A stretch of 60,060 nt of DNA, filler included, from Candidatus Zhuqueibacterota bacterium (GTDB taxonomy: Bacteria > BS750m-G25): NCBI GenBank assembly GCA_016783505.1. It is 3 parts of 3 records of this genome, joined end to end, with 100 filler letters (N's around TTAATTAATTAA, not from the genome) between each part and the next. Parts side by side here need not be neighbours in the genome. Positions count along the whole stretch, not along the records: positions 40,523 to 60,060 come from JADHWK010000040.1; 2 more parts are not named here. One strand, written 5' to 3'. The notes below the pieces were generated by a model. That model saw only the letters and a list, made by a program, of their open reading frames with translations. It ran no database searches and had not been told where the DNA came from. Positions 44,409-60,060 of the stretch are shown here, one piece after another. The first letter of the stretch is position 1, and the number at the start of each line of letters is the position of its first letter. A program made the translations under genes and the position numbers.

Positions 44409-44713
44409 TGCCTCCCAACGGTGATTTTAATCACACCTTTCAATATACGAACTTTTGGGAAAAAATCAAGGGTAAAATTCTAAATTATTGATCTTTTTTC
44501 ACCAAATTGTTTTGAGTGAAATAGATAGGTATAGTAATCTCCTTTTTGTAGATAATGATCACGGTACATGATTGAGAAACGGATATTAAAAAAACGCTGA
44601 TAGCTTTCCGACAATTTATGGAAAAGGAGTAACCCCGAAACGATTGATTTTCCGACACCCCATTATTGTCCGAAAGTCCCGTTTCGAAACTTCGGTGTCG
44701 GGACATTTTGGAC

Positions 44714-45268
44714 CTACTGATTCACATACAGAAGTTCCCTTTCCAGAACTAACCGGACAATATCATTTAAATCATTATTTCGGGAAAGCTCATCGGTTCG
44801 AAAAACCCTTCGGGTGGCGGATACGATCTTAGGCTCCCCGGTGAGGCCGGGGACAAAATTGAGGAGCCGTACATCCCGTTGGGAACGCCTCTTTCTTGAG
44901 GATAGTATGGTAATAATGGGCAAAATGTCGTTCGCCGCCGGCGTAAACGGCATCCCATTGAATCGGAATATCAAGCGGTGGTCTTCCCCCAATCGAATGT
45001 CCCCCAGGATCTTGGTTCGTTTGGGAAAATAGGGCCTCTCGATCTTCCTGGGAAAATTAAGGGAAATGTCGTACCCTCCTCGTCGGTTCAAATCGCGCAC
45101 GTTCTCCTGAAAAAGCCTGATCACCCCCCGGGCCTGTTTCTCCCAGATCCTCGTTTCCAAGCGAATCTCCTTTGATACCCACGCCTGCCGGCGCTGCTTC
45201 TCCTTCAATTTGCTCAGAAGATTGATGATCCAATCTGAATGCGTTATGGGTTGTGGGTTCTGCCTCAT
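44714..45268 (-). CDS. Hypothetical basic protein
   Basis: 184-aa open frame; no motif recognised. Confidence 0.5.
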   Translation of the reverse strand: MRQNPQPITHSDWIINLLSKLKEKQRRQAWVSKEIRLETRIWEKQARGVIRLFQENVRDLNRRGGYDISLNFPRKIERPYFPKRTKILGDIRLGEDHRLIFRFNGMPFTPAANDILPIITILSSRKRRSQRDVRLLNFVPGLTGEPKIVSATRRVFRTDELSRNNDLNDIVRLVLERELLYVNQ

Positions 45269-45491
45269 AAGTTATGTTTAAACTATTGTATTTTTCAATG
45301 ATGTAGAGTTTTGGAGTGCATCGTTCATCTAATAATCGTATATCGTTTATCCCGAAGCTTCGGATAGCCTGTATCGAAGCCCGGTTTTGCCGAATACCGA
45401 ATGCCGTTACCGAAAACCGATACGGGCGGCGTCACCGATAAACCAGTTACGATTGTAGTCTGATTAATTTTTACAATAATTTAGTTATGTA

Positions 45492-46112
45492 TTAATGAGC
45501 ACGAACAATCTCTTTAACCTTCATCAGTCGGGTGAGGTTGGAGCGCTCCAGCTCACTCAGTTTGTCGCCTATGAACCTGATGGTCTCCTCTAAGCTTGGT
45601 ATCAGAATATATTCAAGGGCGTTCACCCGGCGCCTGGTGGTCTCCAGCTCAGCGGCGAGTAGTTGCAGGGATTTTTCCCTCTCCGCCATCTTGATCATCA
45701 GGGGCAATACCCCATAAAAAATTCCCAGGGCCAGATCCAGATTTCCTGAAGTGTCCGCGAATCCGTAGGAGAACTGGCCATCCTGCCATTCTAACTTAAA
45801 TTCGGGAATCCTTAAATTCATAACCGGCAGCACGGAGACCTTAAGCTGTGCCTTTTTCTGGGAAAAGGACAGGGCCCCTTCCAGGATCTCCCTGTCCATT
45901 TCAAAGCGAGCGGACAGAAAAGCCCGGTATCCCTCGCTCAGCTTCTCCTCTACCTCTCCCCTCAGTTCCCTGGTCTCTTTTACCAGGGCCAGGAATCTAC
46001 GCATCAGCTCCTCTTGTTTGTCCTTCAGGAGCTTATGCCCCCTTCGGGCAAAGGCCAGCCTCCTCCGCAGACGGAGCATCTCCATTCGGTTAGGATTGAC
46101 CCTCAATCTCAT
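45492..46112 (-). CDS. ntpD: V/A-type ATP synthase subunit D
   Basis: RGHKLLKDK and TRRRVNALE. Confidence 0.95.
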   Translation of the reverse strand: MRLRVNPNRMEMLRLRRRLAFARRGHKLLKDKQEELMRRFLALVKETRELRGEVEEKLSEGYRAFLSARFEMDREILEGALSFSQKKAQLKVSVLPVMNLRIPEFKLEWQDGQFSYGFADTSGNLDLALGIFYGVLPLMIKMAEREKSLQLLAAELETTRRRVNALEYILIPSLEETIRFIGDKLSELERSNLTRLMKVKEIVRAH

Positions 46113-46216
46113 AATCCGTCTTCCCAGATTTTAATGATATTCATTGATAAATCCGAAATTCGAAGGTTCGGGATCGTGATTCGGATTTTTCAATGTCCTC
46201 TGTTTTGCAACGAAGT

Positions 46217-46283
46217 CTCAAACGTAAAGCTCAGCCGCCGTGGCCGCGGAGCGGACACGGTCGGCTGAAGCGATAAGTTAGGG
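46217..46283 (-). other. attC site 1
   Basis: Minus strand CCCTAAC..CTTCAGCCGACCG..CGGCGGCTGAG..GTTTGAG imperfect palindrome, 8 nt after a stop codon. Confidence 0.85.
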
Positions 46284-46291
46284 AATTCAAA

Positions 46292-46648
46292 TTAATCTTT
46301 ACCCCGCAAACGTATCTTTAAAATTGTTTGCGGGAGATGCCCCGTAATACCTGCTATAGCTACTAATGATAAAAATATCAATAATGCAGAAATTCCTACG
46401 CTAATTTTCGATAAATCACCGATGCTGTTTATAATCTTGTAGATAAAATAAATACTTAACCACCCAATTGCTGAACCAATAAAATTAAACCAAAATTGAA
46501 ATAGACCCGATATAAATAACCATTCCCACGTAGATTTATTTTTCAAGCCCTCAGAAGGCGTTTTAAAATCAAGATATGATTTACTTAAGGCTCTTATCGC
46601 AAAATATAACGTAGTAAATATACTTACGACAATAAACGTCATCTTCAT
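46292..46648 (-). CDS. Cassette-borne hypothetical membrane protein
   Basis: Three hydrophobic segments; cassette ends GTTAGGCAATT / AATTCCCTAAC. Confidence 0.75.
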   Translation of the reverse strand: MKMTFIVVSIFTTLYFAIRALSKSYLDFKTPSEGLKNKSTWEWLFISGLFQFWFNFIGSAIGWLSIYFIYKIINSIGDLSKISVGISALLIFLSLVAIAGITGHLPQTILKIRLRGKD

Positions 46649-46689
46649 ACTTAGCACCTCTGTTTAAGGATTATATGAAATACGAAATT

Positions 46690-46764
46690 GCCTAACGCTC
46701 CGCATAACCGGCTGGCAATGGAGCGCAGCGGAATTGCCAGTCCGAGTTGATGCGGTTGTTAGCT
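46690..46764 (-). other. attC site 2
   Basis: Minus strand AGCTAAC..CTGGCAAT..ATTGCCAG..GTTAGGC with canonical R boxes. Confidence 0.9.
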
Positions 46765-46774
46765 GCAAATATGC

Positions 46775-47302
46775 TTAGCTTAAACTATTAGCTACAAAGT
46801 CTTGGTATTCAGTAAATAGTTCCCAGGTTTCAACATAACCAAAGAACTTCAATTCTAAATGCTTGCCATCCATTGAGGCATCAATTGTTCTGCCTTTCCA
46901 AGAGACAGGCAGAAGGCTCTTGTCATATTTCTTAAATTCAAACCTGAAATTATGAGAAAGACAGTTCCTAATCATTCGTGCAAATTGATACCATGATTCT
47001 GCTTTGAATGCAGAATCCTGTTTCGTCTTATCGCAATAATTCTTGATAAGCTCAAAAGACTCCTTGATAAGAGCTCGAATCTGCGAAGTAAGAAATTCCT
47101 TAATCGCGATATCACGGTCAGCAGATTTCATCAGAAGATTCTTGACCTGTTTGAATTCAACCGTGTAGGTTCCAAATTTGGCGTGGCTCTCTTCCAAAAT
47201 TGGATAGACCTTTTCGTTTGAAAAAAGAGAAATTGCCGCCAGCCCAAGAATGTAGTTGTTCTTGGCATTCTCCAACTGACTCATAAGTTCCTTTTTTGTC
47301 AT
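46775..47302 (-). CDS. Cassette-borne HEPN-like protein
   Basis: RNCLSH (RxxxxH); cassette ends GTTAGCTGCA / TGCAGCTAAC match 10/10. Confidence 0.7.
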   Translation of the reverse strand: MTKKELMSQLENAKNNYILGLAAISLFSNEKVYPILEESHAKFGTYTVEFKQVKNLLMKSADRDIAIKEFLTSQIRALIKESFELIKNYCDKTKQDSAFKAESWYQFARMIRNCLSHNFRFEFKKYDKSLLPVSWKGRTIDASMDGKHLELKFFGYVETWELFTEYQDFVANSLS

Positions 47303-47326
47303 ATGCACTCCGAACTATTTTTGTGC

Positions 47327-47370
47327 AGCTAACATATAATAGACGGCCGAAATGCCGTGTTATAACACTG
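47327..47370 (-). other. attI-like site heading the B-D array
   Basis: Minus strand GGCCGTCTATTATAT-GTTAGCT: a cassette start with no attC hairpin upstream. Confidence 0.55.
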
Positions 47371-47528
47371 CGTTTAGGCCTTATAAAAACCATTTATTAA
47401 CTTGGGTTTCATAATAAAAATCCTAATGTTATGAACAATGATTGTTTTTTTTAGACTGCAACTTTCCCAGTCTAACAATTATGGTGCTTCTCTGTTTTTG
47501 ATCATCTGTTTGATTTTCCAAAACTGTA

Positions 47529-48905
47529 TTAAGCCTTTTCCTTCATATACTTTTTGATATGTTCATCTTTGACCCGTTTAAGCTCTTCCCTGGGCAGAAG
47601 CCCCAGCAGTTCCCAGCCCAGGTTTAGGGTTTCCTCAATCGTTCGATTTTCATCAAGGGTCTGTTGAACGTATCTTCTCTCAAACTCTTCGGAAAATTTA
47701 AGGAGGGCCCGGTCGGTCTCGGTGAGGGCCGCTTCCCCAAGGATCACCTTCAGCTCCTCAGCCTCCTTTCCCCTGGCATAGGCGGCAAAGAGCTGATTGG
47801 AAAGCCCGGCGTGATCCTCCCGGGTTTTGCCTTCTCCGATGCCCCTATCCCTGAGCCGAGAAAGGGAGGGTAAGACATTGATGGGGGGATAGATCCCCTT
47901 CCGCTGAAGGGCCCGATCGAGAATGATCTGTCCCTCGGTGATGTATCCGGTGAGGTCGGGGATAGGATGGGTCTTATCATCCTCGGGCATGGAAAGGACG
48001 GGGATCTGGGTTATGGATCCCTTTTTCCCCTGAATACGCCCGGCTCGTTCATAGACCGTAGCCAGATCGGTGTAAAGGTAGCCCGGGTAGCCCCGCCTGC
48101 CCGGGACCTCTTTTCTGGCGGCTGAAATCTCCCTTAGGGCCTCGCAGTAGTTGGTCATATCGGTGAGTATGACCAGGACGTGCATGTCCTTATCAAAGGC
48201 CAGATATTCAGCGGTGGTCAGGGCCAGCCGGGGGGTGGCCAGGCGTTCAATGGCCGGGTCGTCGGCTAAATTTACGAAGAGCACCGCCCGGTCAATGGCG
48301 CCGGTGCGCTTAAAGTCAGTTATGAAATAATTGGCCTCCTCAAAGGTGATCCCCATGGCCCCAAAGACCACAGCGAATTTCTCCTCTTTGCCTAATACGG
48401 TGGCCTGCCTGGCAATTTGGGCCGCCAGTTCCGGGTGGGGCAGGCCGAAGCCGGAGAAGATGGGAAGCTTCTGTCCCCTTACCAAAGTATTAAGCCCATC
48501 AATGGCCGAGATCCCGGTCTGAATAAATTCCGAGGGATAATCCCGGGCGTAGGGATTGGTGGGATTGCCGCTGATGTCGAGGCGCTTTTCAGGGATAATC
48601 CTCGGGCCCCCGTCAATGGGATGCCCCATTCCGTCGAAGACCCGGCCCAGCATATCCAGGGAGACCCCCAGTTCGATCCCCTTGCCCATAAATCTTATCC
48701 GGCTTTTATAGACATCAACGCCGCTGGAGCCCTCAAAGAGCTGAACCAGGGCCTTATCATAGTGTACCTCTAAAACCTTTCCCCGACGTATTTCCCCGGT
48801 GGGCATCTCCAATTCCACCAACTCATCGAACTTTACCCCTTCCACACCCCCCACCAACACCAGGGGTCCCACGATCTCCTCTACGGTCAAATACTCTTTA
48901 GCCAT
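47529..48905 (-). CDS. ntpB: V/A-type ATP synthase subunit B
   Basis: [18 protein letters not shown] and [11 protein letters not shown]. Confidence 0.96.
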
Positions 48906-48923
48906 TTAATTCTCCTGGTTTCA

Positions 48924-49015
48924 CCTGTCTGTATCAGCATAAAAAAAGGTTTTGCGAAGTAAAAATCTAGGTGAGCCCTGATCTATTGGAACGAACCTTT
49001 TATGCTGGGTCATTG
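48924..49015 (-). other. Degenerate attC site 3
   Basis: Minus strand CAATGAC-CAGCATAAAAGGTTCG..TTTTATGCTG; same family as site 4; R' box lost. Confidence 0.7.
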
Positions 49016-50346
49016 GAAGTTACTGTAATATTACTTTTTTTTTGCACTCTATAAAGCGTTGTGTATGGCTCACGCCAACTCTCACCATAAACTTCATTCA
49101 CTTTATCCAAATGTTCCCTGGGGGCTCTTAATTCTATATCATTCAAATAATTTAAAAATTCATCTTTTATGTTTTGTGAGAAAACCTTTGTTCCATAATC
49201 AATGGCATCGTGTAAGGGTTGTTCATTTAAATACGTTTGGCATTCGTTATCTATGAACATGGCATTGCAATATGGTAATAAGACTGATATAATTTCAATA
49301 TCATTAGCCATTCCTTGATTTGGTGGTTTCTTTCTGCCGGTGGCAGCTTTACGTGCTAATGCTGCATACAACATGGAAGAAATTTTAATAAATGGGACAT
49401 CTTTTAGAGAAGAAGAATCCAGATATTCAACGGTCTTCGGCCATATATCTGAATCCTGGATGCCAGCCTTTCTAAAAGCGTCGTGTATTGAATGGATAAA
49501 AACAATAGACGACGGAGGGAATATGTCATTCGCTGTTAGCTCAACATGCCCTATGGATATTTCTGCGGATTTTTTTAGATAATTTAAGTATATTTGTAAA
49601 GTTACCCTACCAAATGCCATACTTTCTTTTTCAAACCAGTAATCAAAAGTTTTATTTCTTTCAGATTGCCATTGCTTAAAAAGTTTACTTAATCCTTTAT
49701 GCATTTCTTCTCTGTTTTTACGGAGCTCATCTATCCAATCTAAACCATATTGTATATTCACTGAGATAATTAATCTATCTTGCCAAGCATTGATATTTCC
49801 ATTAACTACGGTATGCACGTCTAAATTTAATGCCTTATCCGCCTTCCCAGAAATCCAATTTATTGCATGTTCGTATATCTGAAATCTTTTGATGGTTTCA
49901 TGATCGTAAAACCTGACATCATGAGATAGTAGTTCATACATCCGCTTTAAAGGTTTAAAATATGGTGACAAAAGAGACTCATCAGTGTGAAACCCTGAAT
50001 CAGGACATGTGATAAGCTGCAATTTACAAAGGCTATCTAACCTTTCAAAAAGCCTTACCCAAAATTCATCTAATGTTCCTTTCTTGTATGGTTTCGTTTG
50101 AGGGTTAAGCGCTTTCATCATGTTGCTAATCGCAAATTGGTCAACATAAACAACCTTCTTGTTTAATTCTGGAAGGGGATAGCTTGATGCGGGTTCAGTT
50201 CCACGTGGGAAGAAGCAGTCTTTACATCTTCTACAATAATGATGGTTGCAAATCATTAGAATGCCAAAGCTCTTTTTTCCGCATTTTGGACATTTAATGT
50301 ATGGTGGAGAGATAAATGTTCTTGGATCAAAATTAATAGTTTTCAT
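49000..50346 (-). CDS. Cassette-borne hypothetical protein with a Zn ribbon and a PIN-like domain
   Basis: CPKC..CKDC; VYVDQ..NDIE..FIDN acidic pattern; AT-rich. Confidence 0.6.
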   Translation of the reverse strand: MKTINFDPRTFISPPYIKCPKCGKKSFGILMICNHHYCRRCKDCFFPRGTEPASSYPLPELNKKVVYVDQFAISNMMKALNPQTKPYKKGTLDEFWVRLFERLDSLCKLQLITCPDSGFHTDESLLSPYFKPLKRMYELLSHDVRFYDHETIKRFQIYEHAINWISGKADKALNLDVHTVVNGNINAWQDRLIISVNIQYGLDWIDELRKNREEMHKGLSKLFKQWQSERNKTFDYWFEKESMAFGRVTLQIYLNYLKKSAEISIGHVELTANDIFPPSSIVFIHSIHDAFRKAGIQDSDIWPKTVEYLDSSSLKDVPFIKISSMLYAALARKAATGRKKPPNQGMANDIEIISVLLPYCNAMFIDNECQTYLNEQPLHDAIDYGTKVFSQNIKDEFLNYLNDIELRAPREHLDKVNEVYGESWREPYTTLYRVQKKSNITVTSNDPA

Positions 50347-50383
50347 TTTGGTTTCAACATCCTTTATCTATCAGAGCAATTTT

Positions 50384-50474
50384 CAATAATGTTTCCAGCA
50401 TAAAAGAAGTTTTTACTAAGCAAAAATTTTGGGGTGAGTGCCGTAAGGCACGAACCTTTTATGCTGTGTTAACC
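50384..50474 (-). other. attC site 4 (R' GTT changed to ATT)
   Basis: Minus strand GGTTAAC-aCAGCATAAAAG..CTTTTATGCTG-gaaac-ATTATTG. Confidence 0.8.
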
Positions 50475-50500
50475 GATGCGGCCGCTGATTTTCATTTAAG

Positions 50501-51166
50501 TCATTTAAGATATTCACTAGCAAATCTCTGTACCCATTTGACCATATCCTTAACATCCAACTCGGTAAATTGCTCAAACTTAGCATGATCAGCATTATTC
50601 CGAATATCTGCTTTGGCAGTAATTTCCTTCTGCGTAAGCTTATTGTATGCTCCATCCCTTGCTAAAGAAGTATTGAGTGCGTCTATTTTAGTCTTTTTGG
50701 GATAGGGTATATTCCGTTGATCACACATTTTCCGTAGCGTATCTTCCAGGACCGCCCCTGTGAGAGATGCAGCTGGAACATAATACCCTTCATTGAGCAG
50801 TGTTTCGGCTTGTTCTATAAAACTACCAAGTAGATCTGCTCTTATCATAGCCCGTATATCAAATAGAAAATCCTCTGAGAAGTCACGGTATGCCGCTTCT
50901 AACACTCCATAACATTGATGGTAATAAAAACTACTGCCGGATGCACGCTTATCTTCAGCCAAACGCCTCATTTGCTGATAATGTTCGCTTTCTTCACCAC
51001 AAGTTCGCTTAATGAGATTTAAACTTTCGGTGCGGAATCGTAGATAGTCAACATCCGATGGATGCCTATCCCACTGCCTTCCATCCCAACCACATTCCTG
51101 AAAGACTCTCTTCCCTTCTGCCAAAAGCTTTTCAAACTTTTCTTTGATTTTCTCATTCATGCCCAT
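50501..51166 (-). CDS. Cassette-borne HEPN/DUF4145-like protein
   Basis: AASLTGAVLEDTLR and RNNADH (RxxxxH); cassette ends match 16/19. Confidence 0.75.
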   Translation of the reverse strand: MGMNEKIKEKFEKLLAEGKRVFQECGWDGRQWDRHPSDVDYLRFRTESLNLIKRTCGEESEHYQQMRRLAEDKRASGSSFYYHQCYGVLEAAYRDFSEDFLFDIRAMIRADLLGSFIEQAETLLNEGYYVPAASLTGAVLEDTLRKMCDQRNIPYPKKTKIDALNTSLARDGAYNKLTQKEITAKADIRNNADHAKFEQFTELDVKDMVKWVQRFASEYLK

Positions 51167-51195
51167 TTAATACTCCTTGTTTTAGCGGCCATTTC

Positions 51196-51330
51196 GGTTA
51201 ACTTAAAACAACCGAAATACTTCGTTTACCCTTTTAGATAGTATCCCATTAGATAATAAATATCTAACAGGACAGAGCATCTAACGAAGTATATGCTCCA
51301 AATTAATTTATTTTACAAAACCCAACTGAG
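51196..51330 (-). repeat. attI-like module A
   Basis: Two GTTAGAT direct repeats, then GTAAACGAA..TTTTAA-GTTAACC; paralogous to modules B and C. Confidence 0.65.
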
Positions 51331-51338
51331 TGGATATT

Positions 51339-51917
51339 TTAGCTTGACTTCGGTCTTTTAAAAGATCTTAGGCCTAAAAGCTCATACATATTTTGTTCCA
51401 TTAGCATTTTTAATAATTCTATATTCTTTAACCCTTTTTGTAAAGCATTCTCATAAGTAATATCGAAGTTTCCCTTTTTTAGGGAATTCCAGCTCATATT
51501 ATATTTCTTACTGCTAAGAAGGGAAAAATTCTCCTCTGAAATATCATCTCGATCTAACTTAAACAATTGTCTTATCCGAAAATTATCTCCCAACCTCAAA
51601 ATAATAAGTTCATTAAAGATTTGCCGCTCAACTTTATCCTTAGATAACCAACAGCCAACAGGATTACTTTCTGATTTTCTAATAGTTTTTACTTCAATCT
51701 TCTTCCCAGTCTTAGGGTCAATACAATCAAATCCTTTTTCAGATGGGTTAGTATTTATTTTATAATTAAAAAGAATGGAAACATACCATTCACCAATTTC
51801 TGGAATAACCTTTCTCGTTCGAACGATTTTAAGCTCTTTTAGTCTTTCTTCGATTTTATTATACTTATCAAGAAGGGAGAGCACAACTTTTATCTTTCGA
51901 AATCTATCGTCTTTCAT
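51339..51917 (-). CDS. PD-(D/E)xK nuclease-like protein
   Basis: EIGEW and GFDCID..KIEVKT; very AT-rich. Confidence 0.65.
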   Translation of the reverse strand: MKDDRFRKIKVVLSLLDKYNKIEERLKELKIVRTRKVIPEIGEWYVSILFNYKINTNPSEKGFDCIDPKTGKKIEVKTIRKSESNPVGCWLSKDKVERQIFNELIILRLGDNFRIRQLFKLDRDDISEENFSLLSSKKYNMSWNSLKKGNFDITYENALQKGLKNIELLKMLMEQNMYELLGLRSFKRPKSS

Positions 51918-51957
51918 GAATTTGCCCTATTGCAATTAATAAACTTCGGGCTTTTCC

Positions 51958-52092
51958 GCTTAAATTAAAATAACCGTAATAGTTCGTTTACTCTATTATA
52001 TAGCTAGCATCTAACGGGGTTTATGCTCTCATATTGATATACCCGCCTGCCGAAGTCCCGGGACGGCGGGCAGGTTTTGCGAAACCCAACTG
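51958..52092 (-). repeat. attI-like module B, with a GC-rich palindrome inserted
   Basis: Shares ttaaaa.aaccg.aata.ttcgtttac, gcatctaacg..gt.tatgctc and aaacccaactga with module A. Confidence 0.65.
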
Positions 52093-52119
52093 ATAGGAAT
52101 AAATTCCTATCCTAATTTA

Positions 52120-53085
52120 CTAAATAGCCTCAATAGTTGAAGGCGGTTTTTTGGTTATGTTGTAAGTAACACTTACAACCCCTGATACTTCCGTTGTTAT
52201 CCTTTCTGCTAATCTATCCAAAGTTTCATAGGGAAGTCTGGTTGGTGATCCCGTTATTGCATCTTTGCTATCCCAGCATCTTACCTCTATCTGCAAGCCA
52301 TAATCCCTTTTCCCTTCTCTAACACCGGTGACTCTATCTTCATGCAAGATTGCCAAGTATTGAAATGCCTTTGTATTACATAATTCTTCTTCAACAATTT
52401 TCGTAGCTTTTCTTACAATTTCTACTCTTTCCGGCGTGATTTCTCCTATTATTCTTGCCGCTAAGGCGGGGCCCGGAAAGGGTGGCCTCTTATATATTTC
52501 CTCTGGGAGATCCAGAACCTTCGCCACCCTTCTTATCCCTGATTTTCTAAGCTGGATTAAAGGTTCTATTACTTTATATCCATATGTCTCTTCTGTATCA
52601 ATTCCAAGCTGTGCTAAGATATTGTGCTGTCTTTTAATGCCTGCCACAGTTTCTTCTACATCGGTTAAATTTGTCCCCTGCAAAAGATATTTCGCACCGC
52701 TCTCCATTACTAAATTACCAAAAACATCTTTGTAAAATGCCTGGGTAATAGCTTCTCTTTTTTCTTCAGGATCTGTGAGACCTCTTAATCCGTCAAAAAA
52801 GATCTCATTGGCATCAAAAAGTTCAACATTTACTCCCATATCTTCAAACAATGAAATGATATGTTCAGGTTCACCCTCTCTCATTATACCGTTATCAATA
52901 AAATACGTTTTGAGCCTATCACCTAAGGCTCTATGCCCTAATATAGTTACGGTTGAAGAGTCAACCCCACCAGACAAAGCATTGACAGCTAAGCCAGTTC
53001 CAACGATAGAGGAGATCTCTTCCACTTTTAGTTTTATAAATTCTTCAGGATGTAAATCCTCCGTTTTTATTTCCTCAATTTTCAT
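52120..53085 (-). CDS. GMP synthase ATP-pyrophosphatase subunit (archaeal GuaAB-like), no glutaminase domain
   Basis: ALSGGVDS, DPEEKR, LLQGT, PFPGPALAARI and KPPSTIE. Confidence 0.88.
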   Translation of the reverse strand: MKIEEIKTEDLHPEEFIKLKVEEISSIVGTGLAVNALSGGVDSSTVTILGHRALGDRLKTYFIDNGIMREGEPEHIISLFEDMGVNVELFDANEIFFDGLRGLTDPEEKREAITQAFYKDVFGNLVMESGAKYLLQGTNLTDVEETVAGIKRQHNILAQLGIDTEETYGYKVIEPLIQLRKSGIRRVAKVLDLPEEIYKRPPFPGPALAARIIGEITPERVEIVRKATKIVEEELCNTKAFQYLAILHEDRVTGVREGKRDYGLQIEVRCWDSKDAITGSPTRLPYETLDRLAERITTEVSGVVSVTYNITKKPPSTIEAI

Positions 53086-53117
53086 TATACCCTCCTAATT
53101 AGTTTGAAATAATCTAA

Positions 53118-53192
53118 TCCTTATAGATAGTAAATATCTAACTGGACGAGAGCATCTAACGGAGTTTATACTCCCAAATTAACATGTTTTTC
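53118..53192 (-). repeat. attI-like module C (partial)
   Basis: tagata.taaatatctaac.ggac.agagcatctaacggagtttatactc matches module A. Confidence 0.6.
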
Positions 53193-53254
53193 CTGGCAAC
53201 ATCGGGATTAATGCACGCTTATCGGTGAAGCTTTACTCTCGTTGCTTTCTCCTC

Positions 53255-54085
53255 CTAACTTTTACGGGTACTAAGCAGGGCCATAATAACACCTCCTAAA
53301 CCAAGCACCGAGGCGACTACCTTGACCAGCCAGCCCAGAAAGGGCACCCAACCAACTAACCCCAGAATTATTATCCCCCACAACGTCCCCCAGAGCATAT
53401 TAAGATCGGGCTTCTTCAGGGCTAAAGCCATCCTATTGCCGATAAGCTGGGCCACCGCAATGTAACCTACCAGAAATGCACAGCCGACCAGAATAATTTC
53501 CACCGGTATCAATACTATACCCACCACCGATACGGCCAGTAATATTACTAACGGAACGATCAGCACCATCCCCAGAAGCCCCCACAAGAATACTTTCAGA
53601 GTGTTTTTCTCCACCGCAGTCGAAATTTTGCCGATTGGCTTCGGGATAATCGCCACAATCAACAATGCCAGGGCTAAAAAACCGATAAAAACGACAATTC
53701 TAAAAGGCCAGAACAACCCCAGGCCTATACCTTTGCAAACAGATGTAACAGCCCAAGGAATACCAATAATGTCAACCTCAACTTCATCCCCGTATACTAT
53801 TGCTCCTTCCTCCTTTTTTATGGTTCCCCCTACCGAAACCGCATCCCCGTCCACTACTGCCCTCGGACCCAAGATAACCGAACCCCCCACCGCCACGGCA
53901 TCACCATCAACCACACCGTTTACGGTAACATCCCCGCCGATGGCCACCGCATCGCCTACCCTCATCCCTTCTTTAACCACAAGATCGCTGCCAATCTTAA
54001 CTATGTCCTTAACCCCTGCTCCAGCTATGGGAAGAAATGCCAGGGACAACCCCAAAAGCAGCAAAAAAACAATCCATTTTTTCAT
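53255..54085 (-). CDS. Bactofilin-like beta-repeat membrane protein
   Basis: Signal peptide; GDAVA(I/V)GG repeats; hydrophobic C-terminal half. Confidence 0.75.
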   Translation of the reverse strand: MKKWIVFLLLLGLSLAFLPIAGAGVKDIVKIGSDLVVKEGMRVGDAVAIGGDVTVNGVVDGDAVAVGGSVILGPRAVVDGDAVSVGGTIKKEEGAIVYGDEVEVDIIGIPWAVTSVCKGIGLGLFWPFRIVVFIGFLALALLIVAIIPKPIGKISTAVEKNTLKVFLWGLLGMVLIVPLVILLAVSVVGIVLIPVEIILVGCAFLVGYIAVAQLIGNRMALALKKPDLNMLWGTLWGIIILGLVGWVPFLGWLVKVVASVLGLGGVIMALLSTRKS

Positions 54086-54117
54086 CTTGCGTTTCTCCTT
54101 TCTATCTTCATAGCATA

Positions 54118-55233
54118 TTACTCCAGCGGCATTTCATAGACCCGGTATTTCCGCACCAGCTCCATTCCCAATTTAAGGAGGGCGCCCTTCATGGCGAAAT
54201 TGTCCTCCAGCACGTAATTCGCCTCCAGACGAGCACCCCTCGGTTTGAGCGCTTCGTAGGTACGAAGGTAGAGCAGCGTATCAATGCCCCGACGCTGATA
54301 TTCTTTGACGATGCCCAGAGCCCAGAGACGATAGCTATTGATCTTCTTGATTCCCTTCAACATTCTGAAGAATACAAAAGGAAACAACCGGCCATTCAGT
54401 TTTTTGAGAATCACATTAATGTCAGGGAAGGTGATGGAGTAGCCAATGGGCTCGCCTTTGGCTTCTACGATGAAAACTATACTGGGGTCTAGGATCCGCT
54501 TGACTTCCTTGGCGATGCTGGTGGCTTCGGCATCAGTCACCGGGGAGAATCCCCAGTTTCCATCAATTGAGCGATTGGTCAGCCCTGTTATGATGCGGAT
54601 GTCCCGGACTAGGTGCTTTGGGTCCACTGTACGCACCCTGATGCCATACTTATTTTTAATTCTCTGGGAGTATCTCTTAAAGCGCTCGGGCAGCTCCCAT
54701 ACGGCCATATCTACCGCGTAGGCTTCCAGGTCTTTGGCCTTGGTCAGGCCGAAGGCCCCCATTTGATTGTTGTAATAGGGCGGGTTGTAGGGTGACATAA
54801 GGACTGGCGAGTAATCGAACCCTTCGATGATGAATCCTGCATTCTGGACCTCAAAATTAATGGGGCTGGGGCCGCGCATAGTCGTCATCCCCCGGGCCAC
54901 TAACCAATCCCGGGCCACGGTCAGGAGGGCCCGGGAAGTATCGGTGCAATCCACACACTCGTATGAGCCGAAACTGCCTATCTTCGTTCCCCAATATTCA
55001 TTGGCATGACGATCAATAAAAACTGCTATCCGTCCCATTAGCTCTCCGTCATCATAAGCCACAAAGTAGGCATAATCGCAATGTAGGAGCATCGGATTCC
55101 GGCGGCCGTCAAACATCTTCTTCTGCTCGCTCCTTAAAGGCGGCACCCAATAGGGATCATTTCGGTACAATTTATAAGGGAGTTCCAGAAAGCGCCGAAG
55201 TTCCCGCCGTGAAGTTACCTCTCTAATCTCCAT
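54118..55233 (-). CDS. YghO-like GNAT N-acetyltransferase
   Basis: WVPPL, GRIA, YNPPYY and EYQRRGID. Confidence 0.85.
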   Translation of the reverse strand: MEIREVTSRRELRRFLELPYKLYRNDPYWVPPLRSEQKKMFDGRRNPMLLHCDYAYFVAYDDGELMGRIAVFIDRHANEYWGTKIGSFGSYECVDCTDTSRALLTVARDWLVARGMTTMRGPSPINFEVQNAGFIIEGFDYSPVLMSPYNPPYYNNQMGAFGLTKAKDLEAYAVDMAVWELPERFKRYSQRIKNKYGIRVRTVDPKHLVRDIRIITGLTNRSIDGNWGFSPVTDAEATSIAKEVKRILDPSIVFIVEAKGEPIGYSITFPDINVILKKLNGRLFPFVFFRMLKGIKKINSYRLWALGIVKEYQRRGIDTLLYLRTYEALKPRGARLEANYVLEDNFAMKGALLKLGMELVRKYRVYEMPLE

Positions 55234-55253
55234 TTATTGATAAGGTGTTATAC
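55234..55253 (-). other. Truncated attC half-site
   Basis: Minus strand GCGTATAACaccttatcaa after a small gene; the right arm is missing. Confidence 0.35.
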
Positions 55254-55289
55254 GCAACGAATGAGTGGGTGTAGTGAGCGAGGAATCGC

Positions 55290-55505
55290 TTATTTCCCAA
55301 ATGCTTTGTATGTTGGTTTTATCCCTGCTAACACGCCAATTACAGCATACCAATACCAGTCTAAACTAAGCAACGGCTCCCAAAGTTTTGCTATCATTAG
55401 AACAAAACCAGCACCGCAAAGTTGTAGTAGTTTTACGTCTACCCAGCTTAATTCTGCCTTTTTTACTGTTGAATTTACCCAGGTTATAAAACCCATATTT
55501 TTCAC
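55290..55505 (-). CDS. Small membrane protein
   Basis: Two hydrophobic segments; AAGGAGGT RBS. Confidence 0.65.
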   Translation of the reverse strand: MKNMGFITWVNSTVKKAELSWVDVKLLQLCGAGFVLMIAKLWEPLLSLDWYWYAVIGVLAGIKPTYKAFGK

Positions 55506-55637
55506 ACCTCCTTATTGTTTGGATTCGCTAGCCCAATTGATAGATATAAATTCCTATCCTAATCTAAATGGGAATCCCGAATATTCGGGATAAAACATCT
55601 CTAAAAACATCTAATCCAATTGACCAGTCAGGCATCC

Positions 55638-55893
55638 GGGGCTGTGGTAGAACTATCGCGATTGATAATTTAGGGGTTATGTTTAGAACCGCTCTAAAGA
55701 GCGGTTCTGGTTAAATGGCTATTAAAGAAAGCTTTAACCAGTCCGCTGTACCCGGTCCCAAGATCGCTTTGCGACTAGGGTAGGAGGCTACGCCCAACCT
55801 TATCCCGATGCTTCGGGATAGGTTCTGCCCCTTGCTGGGCAGGCGAGATCTTCAGACGGAAAATCAACAATTTTTGGGTTGTGCCACAGGCCC
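55638..55893. mobile_element. MITE family A, copy 4
   Basis: Terminal inverted repeats GGGGCTGTGGTAGAACT / GGTTGTGCCACAGGCCC; interior shared with copy 3. Confidence 0.75.
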
Positions 55894-55930
55894 ATTCGAC
55901 TGATTGGATTTACAAATAACCCTTAGATTG

Positions 55931-57712
55931 CTATCCTTTCACTTCAACCTCAGCACCTGAAGTCTTGATCAATCCCTGAACCTGGCCCTTTATATTCTCG
56001 CTTATCCGATCAAAATCGGTCAATCTATCCTCGGGGATAAATCTGACTTTGGCAATCTCCTCCCTGACCGGTAAGGAAAAGATTTCCTTAATGGGAACAC
56101 CCCTTGCCACTGCCTCCCTGGCCCGGCGGTGAAATTCCAGGACGATCTTGAGCATTCGATACTGCTTCGCAAAAGATGTGTAGGTATCAATCTCATCGAA
56201 GGCGTTTTGGTGGAGGAAGTCCTCCCGGATGGAGCGGGCCGTCTCCAGCGTCAGCCGATCTTCACTGGAGAGGGCGTCCACCCCCACCAGGCGGGCGATC
56301 TCCTTTAAGTCGGCCTCCTTCTGAAGCAGGGCCATGGTCTCCTGACGCACCTGCGGCCAGTCTTCACTGATCTCCTTCAGGAAGAACTCCTTGAGGTTGT
56401 CATGGTAAAGTGAGTAGCTGGTGAGCCAGTTGATGGCCGGGAAGTGTCTTTCATAGGCCAGCCAGTCCTCCAGGCTCCAGAAGACCTTAACGACCTTCAG
56501 GGTGGCCTGGACTACCGGATCTGATAAGTCACCACCTGGGGGGGATACGGCTCCGATGGCGCTCAGAGCCCCTATCCTATTGTCGCTGGAAAGACAGCGG
56601 ACGCGGCCGGCCCGTTCATAGAATTCCGCCAGCCTGGTGGGCAGGTAGGCGGGATATCCCTCTTCACCGGGCATCTCTTCCAGCCGCCCCGACATCTCCC
56701 TTAAGGCCTCGGCCCAGCGGGAGGTGGAGTCAGCCATCAGGGCCACGCTGTAGCCCATATCGCGGAAATACTCGGCAATGGTGATACCGGTATATATGGA
56801 GGCCTCACGGGCCGCTACCGGCATATTGGAGGTGTTGGCGATGAGAACGGTGCGCTTCATCAGGGGCTCCCCGGTCCTGGGATCCTTAAGCATGGGAAAT
56901 TCCATCAATACACTGGTCATCTCGTTGCCCCGTTCGCCGCAGCCCACATAGACGATAATCTCGGCATCGGCCCACTTTGCTAACTGATGTTGAATAATCG
57001 TCTTCCCACTTCCAAATGGACCGGGCACACAGGCCGTTCCTCCCTTGCCAATGGGAAACAGGGCATCTATAACCCGCTGTCCCGTAACTAAGGGAGTTTC
57101 AGGCATCAGTTTTTCCTGATAAGGCCGGAGTTTTCGCACCGGCCATCTCTGCATCATCGTTATGTCCTGGATGTCTTCTGGTCCTTTCACCTTAGCGACG
57201 GTCTCCTCAACTGTAAATTCGCCCTCTTTTATCTCTACGATCTCTCCTTCAACGCCATGGGGAATCATAATCTTATGAAGGACCACCTTGGTTTCCTGCA
57301 CTGTTCCGATAATATCCCCGGAGCTGACCTTATCGCCGTTCTTTACCGTGGGTTGAAATTTCCATTTCTTTTCCCTATCGAGACCGGGAAGGCTAATGCC
57401 CCGGGTGACGTAATCCCCCACCATCTGGCGGATGACATCTAAGGGCCGCTGGATGCCGTCATAGATGGATGTGATCAGGCCGGGGCCCAATTCCACGCTC
57501 AGGGGTTCACCGGTGGAAACGACCTTCTCCCCGGGACCAATGCCCCCCGTCTCCTCGTAGACCTGAATGGAAGCCTTATCGCCCCGCAGTTCAATAATCT
57601 CCCCGATAAGGTTCTTATCGCTGACCTTCACCACATCAAACATCCTGGCATCGTCCATGCCATCGGCCACCACCAAAGGCCCAGATACCTTGATAATCTT
57701 TCCCTCTTTCAT
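55931..57712 (-). CDS. ntpA: V/A-type ATP synthase subunit A
   Basis: [17 protein letters not shown] and [11 protein letters not shown]; no intein. Confidence 0.97.
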
Positions 57713-58020
57713 CCTTAATCCTCTATAGAAAAATAGCAACAATTCACCACGGAATATCGCGGAACTACACAGAAGCCTTCATCCCGCTTGGGCGGGACAT
57801 CAGCTCTAATTTTGTTCACGATTTTTCAAGGCTAGAAATAGGAATATTAACAGGGGTTAATACGGCTTAAACTCATCGCCATTTTTAGCCTTTTTAGCCC
57901 TTCATACCTTCTTTAGCCTTTTGAAGCCTTTTACAGCCTTTTTCAGCCTCCTCGTTACTTATTAAAGTCTTGAGAACTTTAGTTCGTTAGGATTTCAGAA
58001 ACTGATTTCTCCTTTGTGCC

Positions 58021-58326
58021 TTACAAAATATCAGCACCAACCGCTTTCCTAACGGCCCTTTTGATCTCTTCTGTTCCCAATCCCTGGCTTCCCCTAAGAT
58101 TGGGAAGGACGGTAATGCTGGGCAAGGTTTTATCCCTGATTTCATCAATCTGCTCTCGGCAGGCCCTGAAAACCCCCTCGGTGACGAAGATGATGGAGTA
58201 ATTCCCTGTCAAGGCCCTGGCTAAGACCTCCTTCTCCTCCCCGTCCTTTACAAAATAGAGTGATAATCCAAAGGCTTTAAAGGCCCAGATAGAATCCCTA
58301 TCCCCCACCATGGCGATTTTAGACAT
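58021..58326 (-). CDS. V/A-type ATP synthase subunit F
   Basis: KIAMVGDRDS..FKAFG, IIFVTE and RKAVGADIL. Confidence 0.93.
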   Translation of the reverse strand: MSKIAMVGDRDSIWAFKAFGLSLYFVKDGEEKEVLARALTGNYSIIFVTEGVFRACREQIDEIRDKTLPSITVLPNLRGSQGLGTEEIKRAVRKAVGADIL

Positions 58327-58346
58327 AGACAATCCCAGTTATTGCC

Positions 58347-58406
58347 GTTTAGCAGTTGAGCTAACGCGCGCGGTTTATCGCGTCGCTGTTCAGTGCCTTG
58401 TTAGGT
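58347..58406 (-). other. attC site 6 (R' GTT changed to GCT)
   Basis: Minus strand ACCTAACAAGGCACTGAACAGCGACGCG..CGCGCGCGTTAG..GCTAAAC. Confidence 0.8.
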
Positions 58407-58468
58407 TTTGTTTTCATCTTAGCGGACTCTTTCCATTCCCCTCCAGCTCCTTTCGTCTGAAATCCGTG

Positions 58469-59242
58469 CTACGTCCAGATGGCGATCAGGGCCATAAGGC
58501 CGAACCCACACATGATGAGAAGACTTTTACGCCAGCGGTCATGGGGTTGCTCGAAAACTTCCTGGATAATGTCGACCACCGCAACATAAAGAAACGTTCC
58601 CGCGGCAAAAGCATCAAAACTCCCCTCAAATATGGCATCCAAATTGCCCGAAAATACCGTTGAGAGGACCGTTCCGAGAATCACTCCAAAGGGAGTCATG
58701 GCAGAAAATAAGCAAATGATTGCGACATGCCTGGAGGTGGGAAAATCACTTTCTCTCAGACTGACGCCGAGCGCAAAGGCAGCCGCTCCCTTGTGTGCGA
58801 TGATGGCAATGAATATGGCTATAGATGATGCCAGTGTTGCCTCCAGCCCCAATGATGCTCCTGCGATGATTGAGTGAACCGAAAGGATGACGCAAAGCAC
58901 GAAAGGGTAGACACGCCGCCCCTTGGACATCGTTCCCACATCCTTGCTTCCGCCCAATCCCGCCTTTTCCAGCAACAGCACGAGGAGAAATCCCACACCA
59001 CAAATGAGAGCGGGGAAAGGGAAATCAATGTCTCCCGCAAACGCTTTGAAGTTTTCCCACGCATCCGGAAGCATGTGCAGGAGTCCGGCACCAAGGAACA
59101 CGCCACCGGAAAAGGCATGGCCCAGCGTTAGCTGTCGCTTTCCTTGCTGGGACACCCTCATTCGTGTGGGCGTGATTCCCGCGAACAAACCTGCGGCAAA
59201 AATAACTAAAAGAGAAAGAATCTTGAACCAGAGTATTTCCAT
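58469..59242 (-). CDS. Cassette-borne ZIP metal transporter
   Basis: FSGGVFL..LHMLP, HSIIAG, IAHKG and AAGTFLYV; cassette ends GTTAGGT / ACCTAAC match 7/7. Confidence 0.9.
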   Translation of the reverse strand: MEILWFKILSLLVIFAAGLFAGITPTRMRVSQQGKRQLTLGHAFSGGVFLGAGLLHMLPDAWENFKAFAGDIDFPFPALICGVGFLLVLLLEKAGLGGSKDVGTMSKGRRVYPFVLCVILSVHSIIAGASLGLEATLASSIAIFIAIIAHKGAAAFALGVSLRESDFPTSRHVAIICLFSAMTPFGVILGTVLSTVFSGNLDAIFEGSFDAFAAGTFLYVAVVDIIQEVFEQPHDRWRKSLLIMCGFGLMALIAIWT

Positions 59243-59250
59243 GATCGATG

Positions 59251-59290
59251 ACCTAACATATTATTCACCCGCACGTTTATAAGTATTGAC
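59251..59290 (-). other. attI-like site heading the ZIP cassette
   Basis: Minus strand GCGGGTGAATAATAT-GTTAGGT, similar to the site at 47327; no attC hairpin. Confidence 0.55.
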
Positions 59291-59504
59291 AATCGAATCT
59301 TATGGTTAAACTCATAAATTTTAAGTACATGGATTCATATATTAAGTCTCTACCTAACTACAGCTAATATATCATCTTCAACCTTGCTTCCAGGGTTACC
59401 CGATCTATACCAAGAGCGATCAGACACCGTTTGCAACGGTGTCTTTTAATCTCCTGTAATTTAAAAAAGTTACCTAAAACACCCGTAGGGTGTTTGATCA
59501 CTTT

Positions 59505-59612
59505 TTGCTAAGCCCTTCTTTCCGCTCCGTCCTTTACAAAATAGAGTGATAACCCAAAGGCTTTAAAGGCCCAGATAGAATCCCTGTCCCCCACCATGGC
59601 GATTTTTGACAT
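59505..59612 (-). pseudogene. Truncated duplicate of the 5' end of the ATPase subunit F gene
   Basis: MSKIAMVGDRDSIWAFKAFGLSLYFVKDG near-identical to the start of 58021-58326, then a frameshift and truncation. Confidence 0.92.
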
Positions 59613-59632
59613 AGATAACCGACCTTATTATT

Positions 59633-59689
59633 GTTTAATGAAGAAGCTTACAGGCGCCACTAGGCGTCCGGTGCAGCACCTGGATGGCC
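59633..59689 (-). other. Degenerate attC site 7
   Basis: Minus strand GGCCATC-CAGGTGCTGCACCGGACGCC..GGCGCCTGTAAGC..ATTAAAC; both R boxes mutated. Confidence 0.6.
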
Positions 59690-60043
59690 CCCTGACCTGT
59701 TTCCTTTTAGCCAAAAATCAAACGACCGACCCGGCACGAAAATATCCAAACCAATGGAAGGTTCGTCCGAAGGATTCATGACAACATGTGGCTCTCCACT
59801 TGGAATGTAGGCAGCATCGCCTTCGCAAAGATGTTGTTCACCGTCGTTGTCCGTAATGATTGAAAGTCTTCCTTTTAGAACTACAAGAACCTGTGCGTTG
59901 GAGTGGTCGTGTCGGGGAGAGGCGTGCTTCTGTGGCTTGACGAAATGCTCAACTGAGATGTCATCTTGATTGCAAATGCTAACCCGTTTCCAGTCCTTTT
60001 CAGGTTCATAATTCTCGGCTTGGTTAAAATGAATAACCTTCAT
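59660..60043 (-). CDS. Cupin-domain protein (cassette-like)
   Basis: HDH..Q..VLKG and IPSGEPH; AAGGAG RBS; reads into attC 7. Confidence 0.85.
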   Translation of the reverse strand: MKVIHFNQAENYEPEKDWKRVSICNQDDISVEHFVKPQKHASPRHDHSNAQVLVVLKGRLSIITDNDGEQHLCEGDAAYIPSGEPHVVMNPSDEPSIGLDIFVPGRSFDFWLKGNRSGGHPGAAPDA

Positions 60044-60060
60044 TTGATTTCTCCTTGGGG

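Follow-up and report, generated by a model that had tools for sequence, protein, structure and literature searches.

The stretch of DNA analysed here, called the window throughout, comprises 60,060 nucleotides (nt) from a Candidatus Zhuqueibacterota bacterium (assembly GCA_016783505.1) and contains a V/A-type ATPase operon whose subunit genes are separated by accessory genes, an arrangement that a first-pass annotation had attributed to integron cassettes and their attC recombination sites. The window consists of three contigs joined by linkers of the form N44-TTAATTAATTAA-N44 at 20587-20686 and 40423-40522, across which adjacency is meaningless; the locus of interest lies within the third contig, 40523-60060. 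Four subunit genes were recognised there:

58021-58332, minus strand: V/A-ATPase subunit F, intact (Pfam PF01990, ATP-synt_F, E-value (E) 8.3e-16)
55931-57742, minus strand: V/A-ATPase subunit A (Pfam PF00006, E 6.7e-73; PF16886, E 5.3e-34)
47529-48905, minus strand: V/A-ATPase subunit B (Pfam PF00006, E 9.8e-80)
45492-46112, minus strand: V/A-ATPase subunit D (Pfam PF01813, ATP-synt_D, E 4.9e-52; guanine-plus-cytosine (GC) fraction 0.52)

All four are full length by Pfam and share the minus strand with 12 other open reading frames (ORFs), 10 inside the ATPase spacers and two, encoding a ZIP-family transporter and a cupin-domain protein, upstream of F. These coordinates bore out the description of F, A, B and D as split by accessory genes of the same strand. 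The spacers measure 278 nt between F and A, 7025 nt between A and B and 1416 nt between B and D. On the operon strand, the A-B spacer holds ORFs of 71, 371 (GNAT), 276, 321, 192, 221 and 448 amino acids (aa), the B-D spacer holds ORFs of 177 and 121 aa, and the region upstream of F holds the cupin ORF, the ZIP transporter gene and, between them, a duplicate of the F 5' end that is 117 nt long. Inserted ORFs mostly have a GC fraction of 0.31-0.41, compared to 0.48-0.55 in the ATPase genes, while four of them (GNAT, 276-aa, ZIP and cupin) come close to the ATPase genes at 0.48-0.52. No family in Pfam, NCBIfam or PADLOC was matched by the 121-, 177-, 448-, 276- and 71-aa ORFs.

The closest relative among public genome contigs is a Candidatus Abyssobacteria metagenome-assembled genome (MAG; L001) with a subunit B 80% identical, and a collection of metagenome contigs yielded one relative only, with a subunit F 46% identical. 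In six of seven relatives (L001, L003, L006 and three of the phylum of L001) the F, A, B and D genes are compact, with gaps of at most 76 nt between tblastn matches. Since relatives keep the same gene order free of inserts, the operon is the ancestral scaffold. The seventh relative (L002) has a B-D gap of 631 nt with two small ORFs. In that unrelated MAG, ORFs of 103 and 97 aa lie between B and D (5293-5924), with no family match and no attC found by covariance-model search; the B-D junction may be tolerant of inserts more generally. Relatives carrying the V/A-type ATPase also show weaker B-subunit matches (27-35% identity) at other loci, presumably F-type alpha/beta genes, so the V/A-ATPase operon may be dispensable and hence insert-tolerant.

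A search of Rfam, which has no attC family, at its gathering thresholds returned only a group II intron and tRNA. We built our own covariance models, distinct from those of IntegronFinder, from class 1 integrons of plasmid R100 and 14 further plasmid records found via the R100 integron integrase (IntI) IntI1. The training set comprised 15 different attC sites from eight plasmid records, taken from R'' to R' and 60-114 nt long, with R-box and L-box pairs following attC_aadA1. Model R1 was made from nine aadA-like sites, R2 from all 15 sites, and R3 from 29 structure-aligned matches including a relative's arrays. R2 and R3 were run over all 60 kb on both strands with filters off. R1 was too narrow, recovering one of six held-out real sites (dfrA27, 17.7 bits), and was superseded by R2 and R3; as it missed the other five, divergent attC types could escape these models. 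The attC core consensus is RYYYAAC for R'' and GTTRRRY for R', which we checked against the 15 real sites. The features of the B-D spacer are as follows:

47333-47528, minus strand: non-coding stretch from the B stop codon to the first cassette boundary, with a 48-nt imperfect palindrome and a hairpin
46775-47308, minus strand: cassette 1 ORF, 177 aa (GC 0.38)
46690-46764, minus strand: attC of cassette 1 (R'' AGCTAAC, spacer AACCG, L'' carrying two additional bases, L' CCGGTTATG, spacer CGGAGC, R' GTTAGGC)
46292-46657, minus strand: cassette 2 ORF, 121 aa (GC 0.32)
46217-46283, minus strand: attC of cassette 2 (R'' CCCTAAC, 5-nt spacer, L'' carrying one additional base, L', 5-nt spacer, R' GTTTGAG)

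The two attC sites listed were the top two matches in the window with R3 (46690-46764, 36.8 bits, E 9.3e-7; 46217-46283, 35.8 bits, E 1.6e-6) and ranked in the same order with R2 (30.9 bits, E 1.1e-5; 26.3 bits, E 1.9e-4), and R1 had matched 46217-46283 at 35.8 bits (E 2.6e-7), all on the minus strand. The third R3 match, 58359-58406 on the minus strand, reached 12.5 bits (E 1.1; R2 10.8 bits, E 2.3) with the R boxes alone aligned, and two unrelated weak matches followed (E 2.9 and 7.3). Across 1.39 Mb from 80 other V/A-ATPase loci, R2 with default filters gave no match at E<=10. When bottom strands were folded as DNA and compared with shuffles, the two B-D sites gave z -4.2 (46690-46764) and z -6.4 (46217-46283, -25.5 kcal/mol), and the remaining four claimed sites z -1.5 to -2.3 (48924, -2.3; 50384, -2.0; 58347, -1.9; 59633, -1.5). 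Both B-D sites share the plan of attC_aadA1 of R100, R''(7)-5 nt-L'' with extra bases-loop-L'-5/6 nt-R'(7), and their folds show extrahelical bulges. With inverse core sites, bulged L repeats and a model score all present, 46217-46283 and 46690-46764 are genuine attC sites. Six attC sites had been claimed in the first-pass annotation: those at 46690 and 46217 score strongly (E ~1e-6), the candidate at 58359-58406 is marginal (E about 1), and those at 48924, 50384 and 59633 fail every model.

Cassette 1 starts at G|TTAGCTGCA, with the G at 47333, and ends in R'' TGCAGCTAAC, the two being complementary at 10/10 positions, and cassette 2 starts with GTTAGGCAATT and ends with AATTCCCTAAC (10/11). 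In each canonical B-D cassette five of the matching positions lie beyond the conserved GTTAG core, which is what a circular cassette intermediate predicts. The complementary ends listed earlier were confirmed as counted for these cassettes and for two other modules described below (16/19 and 7/7), and the pair called degenerate matches at 5/7, or 15/22 when extended. The right half of the cassette 2 R' (GTTTGAG) is operon target sequence, and the reconstructed empty B-D target reads …TATATG|TTTGAG…, a GTT site. Upstream of F the empty target reconstructs as …AATATG|TTAGCT…, also a GTT site, so that both rebuilt targets, at their reconstructed insertion points, fit the 5'-GWT-3' consensus of attG, the genomic sites at which cassettes can insert.

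The sites at which the arrays open had been described as non-palindromic and attI-like, a class that did not hold together. A 48-nt imperfect palindrome (47340-47385; 19/24 pairs, fold z -3.0) adjoins the 47333 boundary, and the flank at 59257 is unstructured (z +0.85). The flank left of the B-D array cannot be aligned with that left of the ZIP gene, the two show no common attI, and these opening sites neither lie next to an intI nor share a conserved flank. A second hairpin lies at 47451-47475 (z -4.2); none of R1-R3 gave a passing attC match in 47333-47528, where the palindrome and hairpin may be relics of older cassettes.

No integrase accompanies these sites within the window. The Phage_integrase domain of Pfam was found in none of the 57 scanned ORFs of the window, and tblastn searches of all frames of the window, for which IntI1 and the IntI of a related genome (G012) served as queries, gave a best E of 0.94, so the statement that no intI is visible stands for the window. 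Nor do the 60 kb hold a complete integron, with intI, adjacent attI and a Pc promoter at the array head. The two B-D attC sites are 407 nt apart, and no intI was found in the 5.7 kb that reach to the contig start at 40523 or in the 13.3 kb that reach to the window end at 60060. The B-D spacer is thus a two-cassette CALIN (a cluster of attC sites that has no integron integrase). Several arrays had been proposed; the B-D pair alone passes the attC models, and one further site is an eroded candidate. One genome among the 11 from the phylum of the closest relative, G012, encodes an IntI of 418.8 bits, above the curated cut-off and 50.6% identical to IntI1 over 310 aa. The same genome carries attC arrays, located on small contigs, and so places integrons in the neighbourhood of this lineage.

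Since the window is a pseudomolecule of three N-linked contigs, foreign cassettes might have been stitched into the operon by the assembler, and we used public metagenome runs to follow the junctions. Runs X1 and X2-X4, from two studies, contain 98-99% of the sampled words of 45400-55399 and other runs part of them; X1, X2, X5 and X6 were compared on 40523-60060 as Logan contigs, which break at every repeat. In X1, single contigs of even depth (60-70) span all four junctions followed: D/cassette 2, cassette 1/B, B/448-aa ORF and F/ZIP. In X2, from the second study, contigs at depth 41-70 span the last three, and none of the listed X2 pieces spans D/cassette 2. Contigs of even depth across the junctions mean that these are not assembly errors, and the sole repeat-dependent junction, just after A, joins A and B in native order and orientation. 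We therefore regard an assembly artefact as extremely unlikely.

Upstream of F the layout is more complex:

59660-60058, minus strand: cupin-domain ORF (Pfam PF07883, E 4.1e-14)
59521-59637, minus strand: F', a truncated copy of the F 5' end and leader (117 nt, 88% identical to 58235-58351)
59256-59340, minus strand: repeat X, ending at the left junction of the ZIP cassette (…ATATG|TT)
58469-59242, minus strand: ZIP-family metal transporter ORF, 257 aa (Pfam PF02535, E 2.2e-42)
58359-58406, minus strand: candidate attC, eroded, belonging to the ZIP cassette (R'' ACCTAAC, 34 nt, R' GTTAGCT)

The ZIP cassette starts with GTTAGGT, complementary at 7/7 positions to its R'' ACCTAAC. At 48 nt its site is shorter than all 15 collected real attC sites (60-114 nt). 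No recognisable attC follows the cupin ORF, the fold of 59600-59670 (z -1.5) and the models giving no match. Repeat X has no secondary structure (z +0.85), and a second copy lies just past 60060, upstream of the cupin gene, as a joint from 60060 to 59256 at full depth in X1, X2 and X6 reveals; that copy is joined to the cupin leader directly after …ATATGT. The order is X - cupin - target right half - F' - two hairpins - X - ZIP - attC - target right half - F, with one left junction and two different genes, cupin and ZIP, behind copies of X. F' lies 1286 nt upstream of intact F, and its likeness continues upstream through the sequence after R' of the ZIP attC (GCGCCTGTAAGCT versus GCGCGCGTTAGCT). 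An extra unit without the cupin gene was seen at full depth in X1 only (joint 59655 to 59253), and the number of units seems to vary between samples.

This region suggests that cassettes turned over at a single junction and that a tandem Campbell-type duplication took place as well. The tandem units, each with the F 5' end, point to homologous (Campbell-type) events beside or instead of site-specific insertion there, and one alternative holds that the inserts upstream of F, and perhaps others, arrived by homologous recombination with DNA of related strains, the cassettes themselves having formed elsewhere. In that case small circles or fragments bearing a gene end would have integrated Campbell-style. 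The 88%-identical 117-nt copy of the F 5' end, the repeated units of X, cassette, target right half and F 5' end, and the cupin-less extra unit in X1 all speak for it, and so does a parallel on the first contig, where the last 169 nt of sdhB are duplicated (11281-11449 and 12808-12976; 86% identity) around a 1.36-kb insert, the same gene-end pattern as at ATPase F. Further support comes from X6, where core genes are 3-5% divergent from the window (D at 21/478 positions, B at 25/530, A to F at 73/2239) while its ZIP contig (58456-59307) differs at 1/852 positions and the HEPN-like module of the A-B insert (50452-50957) at 4/506. Because both modules are near-identical where core genes are not, recent sharing between populations is suggested, with mixed populations in X6 as an alternative. 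Homologous recombination leaves the B-D pair unexplained, however, since it has no flanking duplication and exact G|TT junctions. Both units upstream of F likewise retain cassette-type junctions at the same G|T point, so that site-specific insertion probably came first. As an account of the inserts, homologous recombination seems to us possible but doubtful.

The same flank bears on a second alternative, an ordinary integron with intI and attI just past 60060, the ATPase genes having been rearranged into or around its array. The cupin ORF begins 2 nt from the window end and the contig continues (one record per run overruns the ends), and the next copy of X past 60060 ends at the G|T junction, as would suit a conserved attI-like left flank. 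Yet X is unstructured and cannot be aligned with the B-D left flank, and the nearest validated attC is 13 kb from 60060, with intact A, B and F, genes that carry no attC, in between. The distance rule of IntegronFinder, a few kilobases, would not bridge 13 kb. The program groups co-localized elements (PMC9024848). The insert-free gene order of relatives, moreover, makes the operon ancestral. We consider an ordinary integron very unlikely.

The A-B spacer has a different composition:

55530-55930, minus strand: dispersed-repeat non-coding stretch after A (repeat families D4, D6, D11, D14, D16 and D18)
53255-55505, minus strand: three-ORF block of 71 aa, a 371-aa GNAT protein and 276 aa (GC 0.38, 0.51 and 0.49)
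53152-53171, minus strand: 20-nt palindrome, copy a (GTATAAAC-TCC-GTTAGATGC)
52120-53085, minus strand: 321-aa ORF with the C-terminal (ATP pyrophosphatase) domain of GMP synthase alone (GC 0.39)
52007-52026, minus strand: 20-nt palindrome, copy b (GCATAAAC-CCC-GTTAGATGC)
51339-51917, minus strand: 192-aa DUF6998 ORF (Pfam 27.2 bits against a cut-off of 27; GC 0.31)
51277-51296, minus strand: 20-nt palindrome, copy c (GCATATAC-TTC-GTTAGATGC), with a homologous leader downstream
50501-51166, minus strand: 221-aa ORF with a weak HEPN match (Pfam E 0.0038, under the cut-off; PADLOC CARF_HEPN E 6e-4)
50384-50486, minus strand: second-family hairpin, site 3, behind the HEPN-like ORF (left end GGTTAAC, then ACAGC and stem)
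49000-50346, minus strand: 448-aa ORF of no family (GC 0.35)
48924-49015, minus strand: second-family hairpin, site 4, behind the 448-aa ORF (left end CAATGAC, then CCAGC and stem)

The insert therefore places five low-GC single-gene modules beside a block of near-native GC (GNAT and 276-aa ORFs), around which no recombination site was recognised (53255-55505). The 276-aa ORF is a predicted membrane protein. The 321-aa ORF matches TIGR00884 at 294.7 bits, under the cut-off of 338.75, and Pfam GMP_synt_C at E 7.8e-23, and the 192-aa ORF resembles methyl-directed restriction enzymes (PADLOC mREase_II, E 3.5e-10). The palindrome GCATAAAC-NNN-GTTAGATGC has three matches in the window, compared to 0.13 expected, all within this insert; they precede its first three modules (321-aa, DUF6998 and HEPN-like), inside longer homologous leaders, and give no fold signal (z about 0). 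Sites 3 and 4 are 76% identical by column across their whole 131-column alignment and carry no GTTRRRY box; the ends of the HEPN-like module are complementary at 16/19 positions and those of the 448-aa module at 5/7, extended 15/22. Compared with the 11 genomes from the phylum of L001, the DNA of site 3 gave only chance-level matches of 15-21 nt. The A-B insert stands apart as a mosaic, and the repeats bounding its modules are not validated as attC sites.

Repeats are a general feature here. Those after A (~400 nt) recur at 34113-34260 and elsewhere and reach depth 541 in X1, compared to ~65. A composite repeat of ~200 nt is common to 34113-34260 and 55625-55830; short GC hairpin repeats (…CCCGAnnnTTCGGGAT…) occur at 4277-4333, 26429, 28282, 32710, 34230, 43121, 55799 and other places; and the palindrome ATAGGAATAAATTCCTAT lies directly before or after genes at 19993-20027 (first contig), 52085-52119 and 55532-55566. 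Logan contigs break at attC 1 (46721/46733), site 3 (50424/50442), the 20-nt palindrome (52022-52051), the repeat after A (55678/55863), the F/F' duplication (58297/58303) and repeat X (59307). The attC cores are multi-copy with varied flanks (depth 193-277 compared to 45-65), and their loose ends at 46705 and 46759 show low agreement. At attC 1 and site 3 depth is two to six times the local baseline, site 3 in X6 standing at 115 compared to about 5; discordant loose ends number six records at 46705 and 10 and 16 records at 50471, and the site 3 core (50436-50471) has 10-16 different flanks in X2 and X6. Multi-copy cores at attC 1 and site 3 fit a cassette pool, and also any dispersed repeat such as that after A.

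We give an even chance to the view that the A-B insert is unrelated to integrons, the hairpins at 48924 and 50384 and the palindromes being repeats of the repetitive extragenic palindromic (REP) or miniature inverted-repeat transposable element (MITE) kind, or regulatory, and the genes among them having been acquired in another way. Neither hairpin is scored by any attC model, even when 48880-53250 (4.4 kb) was searched separately; besides wanting GTTRRRY, both have R boxes unable to pair, and the palindromes are without a fold signal. Other intergenic repeat families are abundant and also multi-copy in metagenomes, like the repeat at 55.6-55.9 kb, and inverted repeats of 70-84% complementarity over ~20 nt are common (87 pairs in 8 kb). 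On the other side, both hairpins stand directly after stop codons of low-GC genes and are oriented as those genes are, each with a RYYYAAC-like box and 5-nt spacer at equal distance from the stem, and the module ends they bound are complementary at 16/19 and 15/22. The models also miss many true attC sites, as the recovery of one in six by R1 shows, and one palindrome-bounded module present here is absent in a related population. That module is the DUF6998 gene: in a contig of X6, one copy of the 20-nt palindrome links 51274 directly to 52077, so the module is missing in that population, which either site-specific exchange or deletion between flanking direct repeats (leaders or trailers, tens of bases) could explain. 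Other A-B insert genes of X6 differ from the window by 4-7% (29/597 and 38/953 for the 276-aa and GNAT genes, 59/811 for the GMP synthase C-domain). X6 covers the bins of the 177-aa and 448-aa ORFs at 0.29 and 0, which, as no contig bridges them, does not count as evidence that they are absent. Two joints of low depth (46300 to 51754 in X2, depth 2.8; 54366 to 52535 in X1, depth 8.1) and two whose sides are only 21-31 letters long (45374 to 52085; 45409 to 55759) are most likely repeat-driven and were not used.

The palindromes admit a further interpretation, in which the operon exchanges modules without attC, as a second means of assembling cassette arrays, an integron-type or other tyrosine recombinase acting at 20-nt attI1-like simple sites, one before each of the GMP-synthase C-domain, DUF6998 and HEPN-like genes. 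They resemble attI1 of R100 in geometry, …TAAAC - 3 nt - GTTAG… compared with CCTAAAAC-AAA-GTTA, both with inverted R-type boxes around three bases, and differ in having no adjoining intI and in forming three direct copies, each before a different gene and within homologous leaders. This likeness may serve as a lead, and unusual delta-attI-type cassettes described in 2026 (PMC12901181) may bear on such sites. We think this exchange unlikely. We also considered whether slippage had deleted attC hairpins on three separate occasions and left the palindromes as their bases, and dropped this because three identical outcomes are improbable unless one reduced form was copied.

Taken together, we find it probable that two classical cassettes entered the B-D spacer by attC x attG recombination, with the ZIP gene as a third and the A-B insert as a separate mosaic. 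An IntI encoded elsewhere, or formerly present, would recombine the folded bottom strand of circular cassettes with a double-stranded GTT in an operon spacer. The second B-D cassette would enter at the resident attC or at the same junction, and the ZIP cassette would enter likewise upstream of F, later losing the middle of its attC. Because all cassettes share the operon orientation, their promoterless ORFs are probably transcribed by read-through from operon promoters. With genes on the minus strand and a negative plus-strand GC skew, the attC bottom strands are suggested to lie on the leading-strand template, a placement said to stabilise chromosomal cassette arrays.

In essence, Loot et al. 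had described this attC x attG route before (preprint 10.1101/2022.09.11.507474; published in Nat Microbiol 9:228, 2024). Their account names 5'-GWT-3' as all that a genomic attG site generally needs, with an extra CRGM motif in E. coli hotspots, and describes resident promoters as able to express inserted cassettes. It proposes CALINs and SALINs (single attC sites that have no integron integrase) as natural products and attC loss by slippage as 'domestication' (10.1101/2022.09.11.507474); the attC sites of this operon may have decayed after capture in that manner. Their data were obtained with IntI1-3 in two hosts, E. coli and V. cholerae, in which essential genes were spared by the insertions (10.1101/2022.09.11.507474). 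As for the mechanism first proposed for this locus, cassettes in the operon, their shared strand, the lack of a visible integrase and the G|TT junctions all survive, and the A-B insert and the unshared attI-like flanks do not fit it.

Several observations weigh against our explanation. First, the integrase search in this organism was limited to the window, ending at 60060, and none of the four genomes with the closest ATPase loci has an IntI above the curated cut-off. Second, the R'' of each B-D attC is off consensus at one position, and the R' of the last, GTTTGAG, does not follow GTTRRRY. Third, the ZIP site reaches an E of about 1 and has no L box, its neighbourhood is made of tandem units with a duplicated F 5' end, and the sites at 48924, 50384 and 59633 went unscored by R1-R3 across the window at E<=10. 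Fourth, the CRGM right-hand motif is absent from both rebuilt targets, and no conspecific empty site was found, the closest genome being 80% identical in subunit B and the closest metagenome relative 46% in F. Lastly, scans for promoters (27 found, 25 expected) and terminators (15 compared to 15.5) were at chance level and uninformative for read-through.

Other features of the stretch deserve mention. In the expanded F-A spacer, 57878-57949 holds 7.4 copies of a 10-nt tandem repeat, and the X6 population is 28 nt shorter there. On the first contig, a 128-aa '23S rRNA intervening sequence protein' gene (PF05635; 10216-10747) lies between sdhA and sdhB with no attC, flanked by inverted CAATCA-rich repeats similar to those at 24471 and 25334, so that a second conserved operon here has taken up a gene. 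The insert between the sdhB duplications contains a 215-aa ORF flanked by 63-nt direct repeats (11750-11812 and 12722-12784; 94% identical). Group II intron domains D1-D4 and D5/6 (Rfam; 142, 61 and 45 bits) fall within ~700 nt at 13134-13829, which may be an ORF-less group II intron, no reverse-transcriptase ORF having been recognised. A tandem duplication with a period of ~870 nt and 89-91% identity (24376-25648) carries two aspartyl-protease-domain ORFs.

CALINs are mostly regarded as debris of decayed integrons. As defined with IntegronFinder, CALINs and SALINs are attC clusters and single attC sites without an integron integrase (PMC9024848), and the B-D spacer resembles them in having two canonical attC sites behind promoterless ORFs with no integrase nearby. 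It differs from the usual CALIN in that the array sits, co-oriented, between subunit genes of a conserved ATPase operon, with further candidate cassettes at two other junctions of the same operon. Compared with the laboratory insertions of IntI1-3, the GTT junctions and the eroded ZIP site are alike, whereas this locus would be a natural end product in an uncultured lineage and has no CRGM motif. Secondary-site insertions of the aadB cassette in RSF1010 and pRAY, cited in the Discussion of Loot et al. (10.1101/2022.09.11.507474), similarly place a complete cassette just downstream of a resident promoter and away from integrons; those are single resistance cassettes on small plasmids, in contrast to several uncharacterised cassettes in a chromosomal operon. 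In the library searched, no paper combines 'attC', 'integron' and 'V-type ATPase', and a broader search on secondary-site insertion in operons gave nothing comparable by title.

Our verdict is that the locus is a CALIN/SALIN, probably formed by the published attG route, in an unusual place; what sets it apart is place and density, as no fewer than two junctions of a single conserved operon are involved and perhaps a third. For annotation it is a warning that long 'spacers' in conserved operons of MAGs can be cassette arrays. Should the exchange of modules without attC prove true, canonical, truncated (48 nt) and vestigial attC sites would show capture, turnover and fixation in one operon. Under the explanation we favour, the locus would be a natural case, in a lineage far from clinical models, of a cassette route so far shown mainly in the laboratory, and it offers sites at which to ask whether host operons serve as expression platforms, whether attC sites erode after capture and whether cassettes have preferred landing pads in operons.

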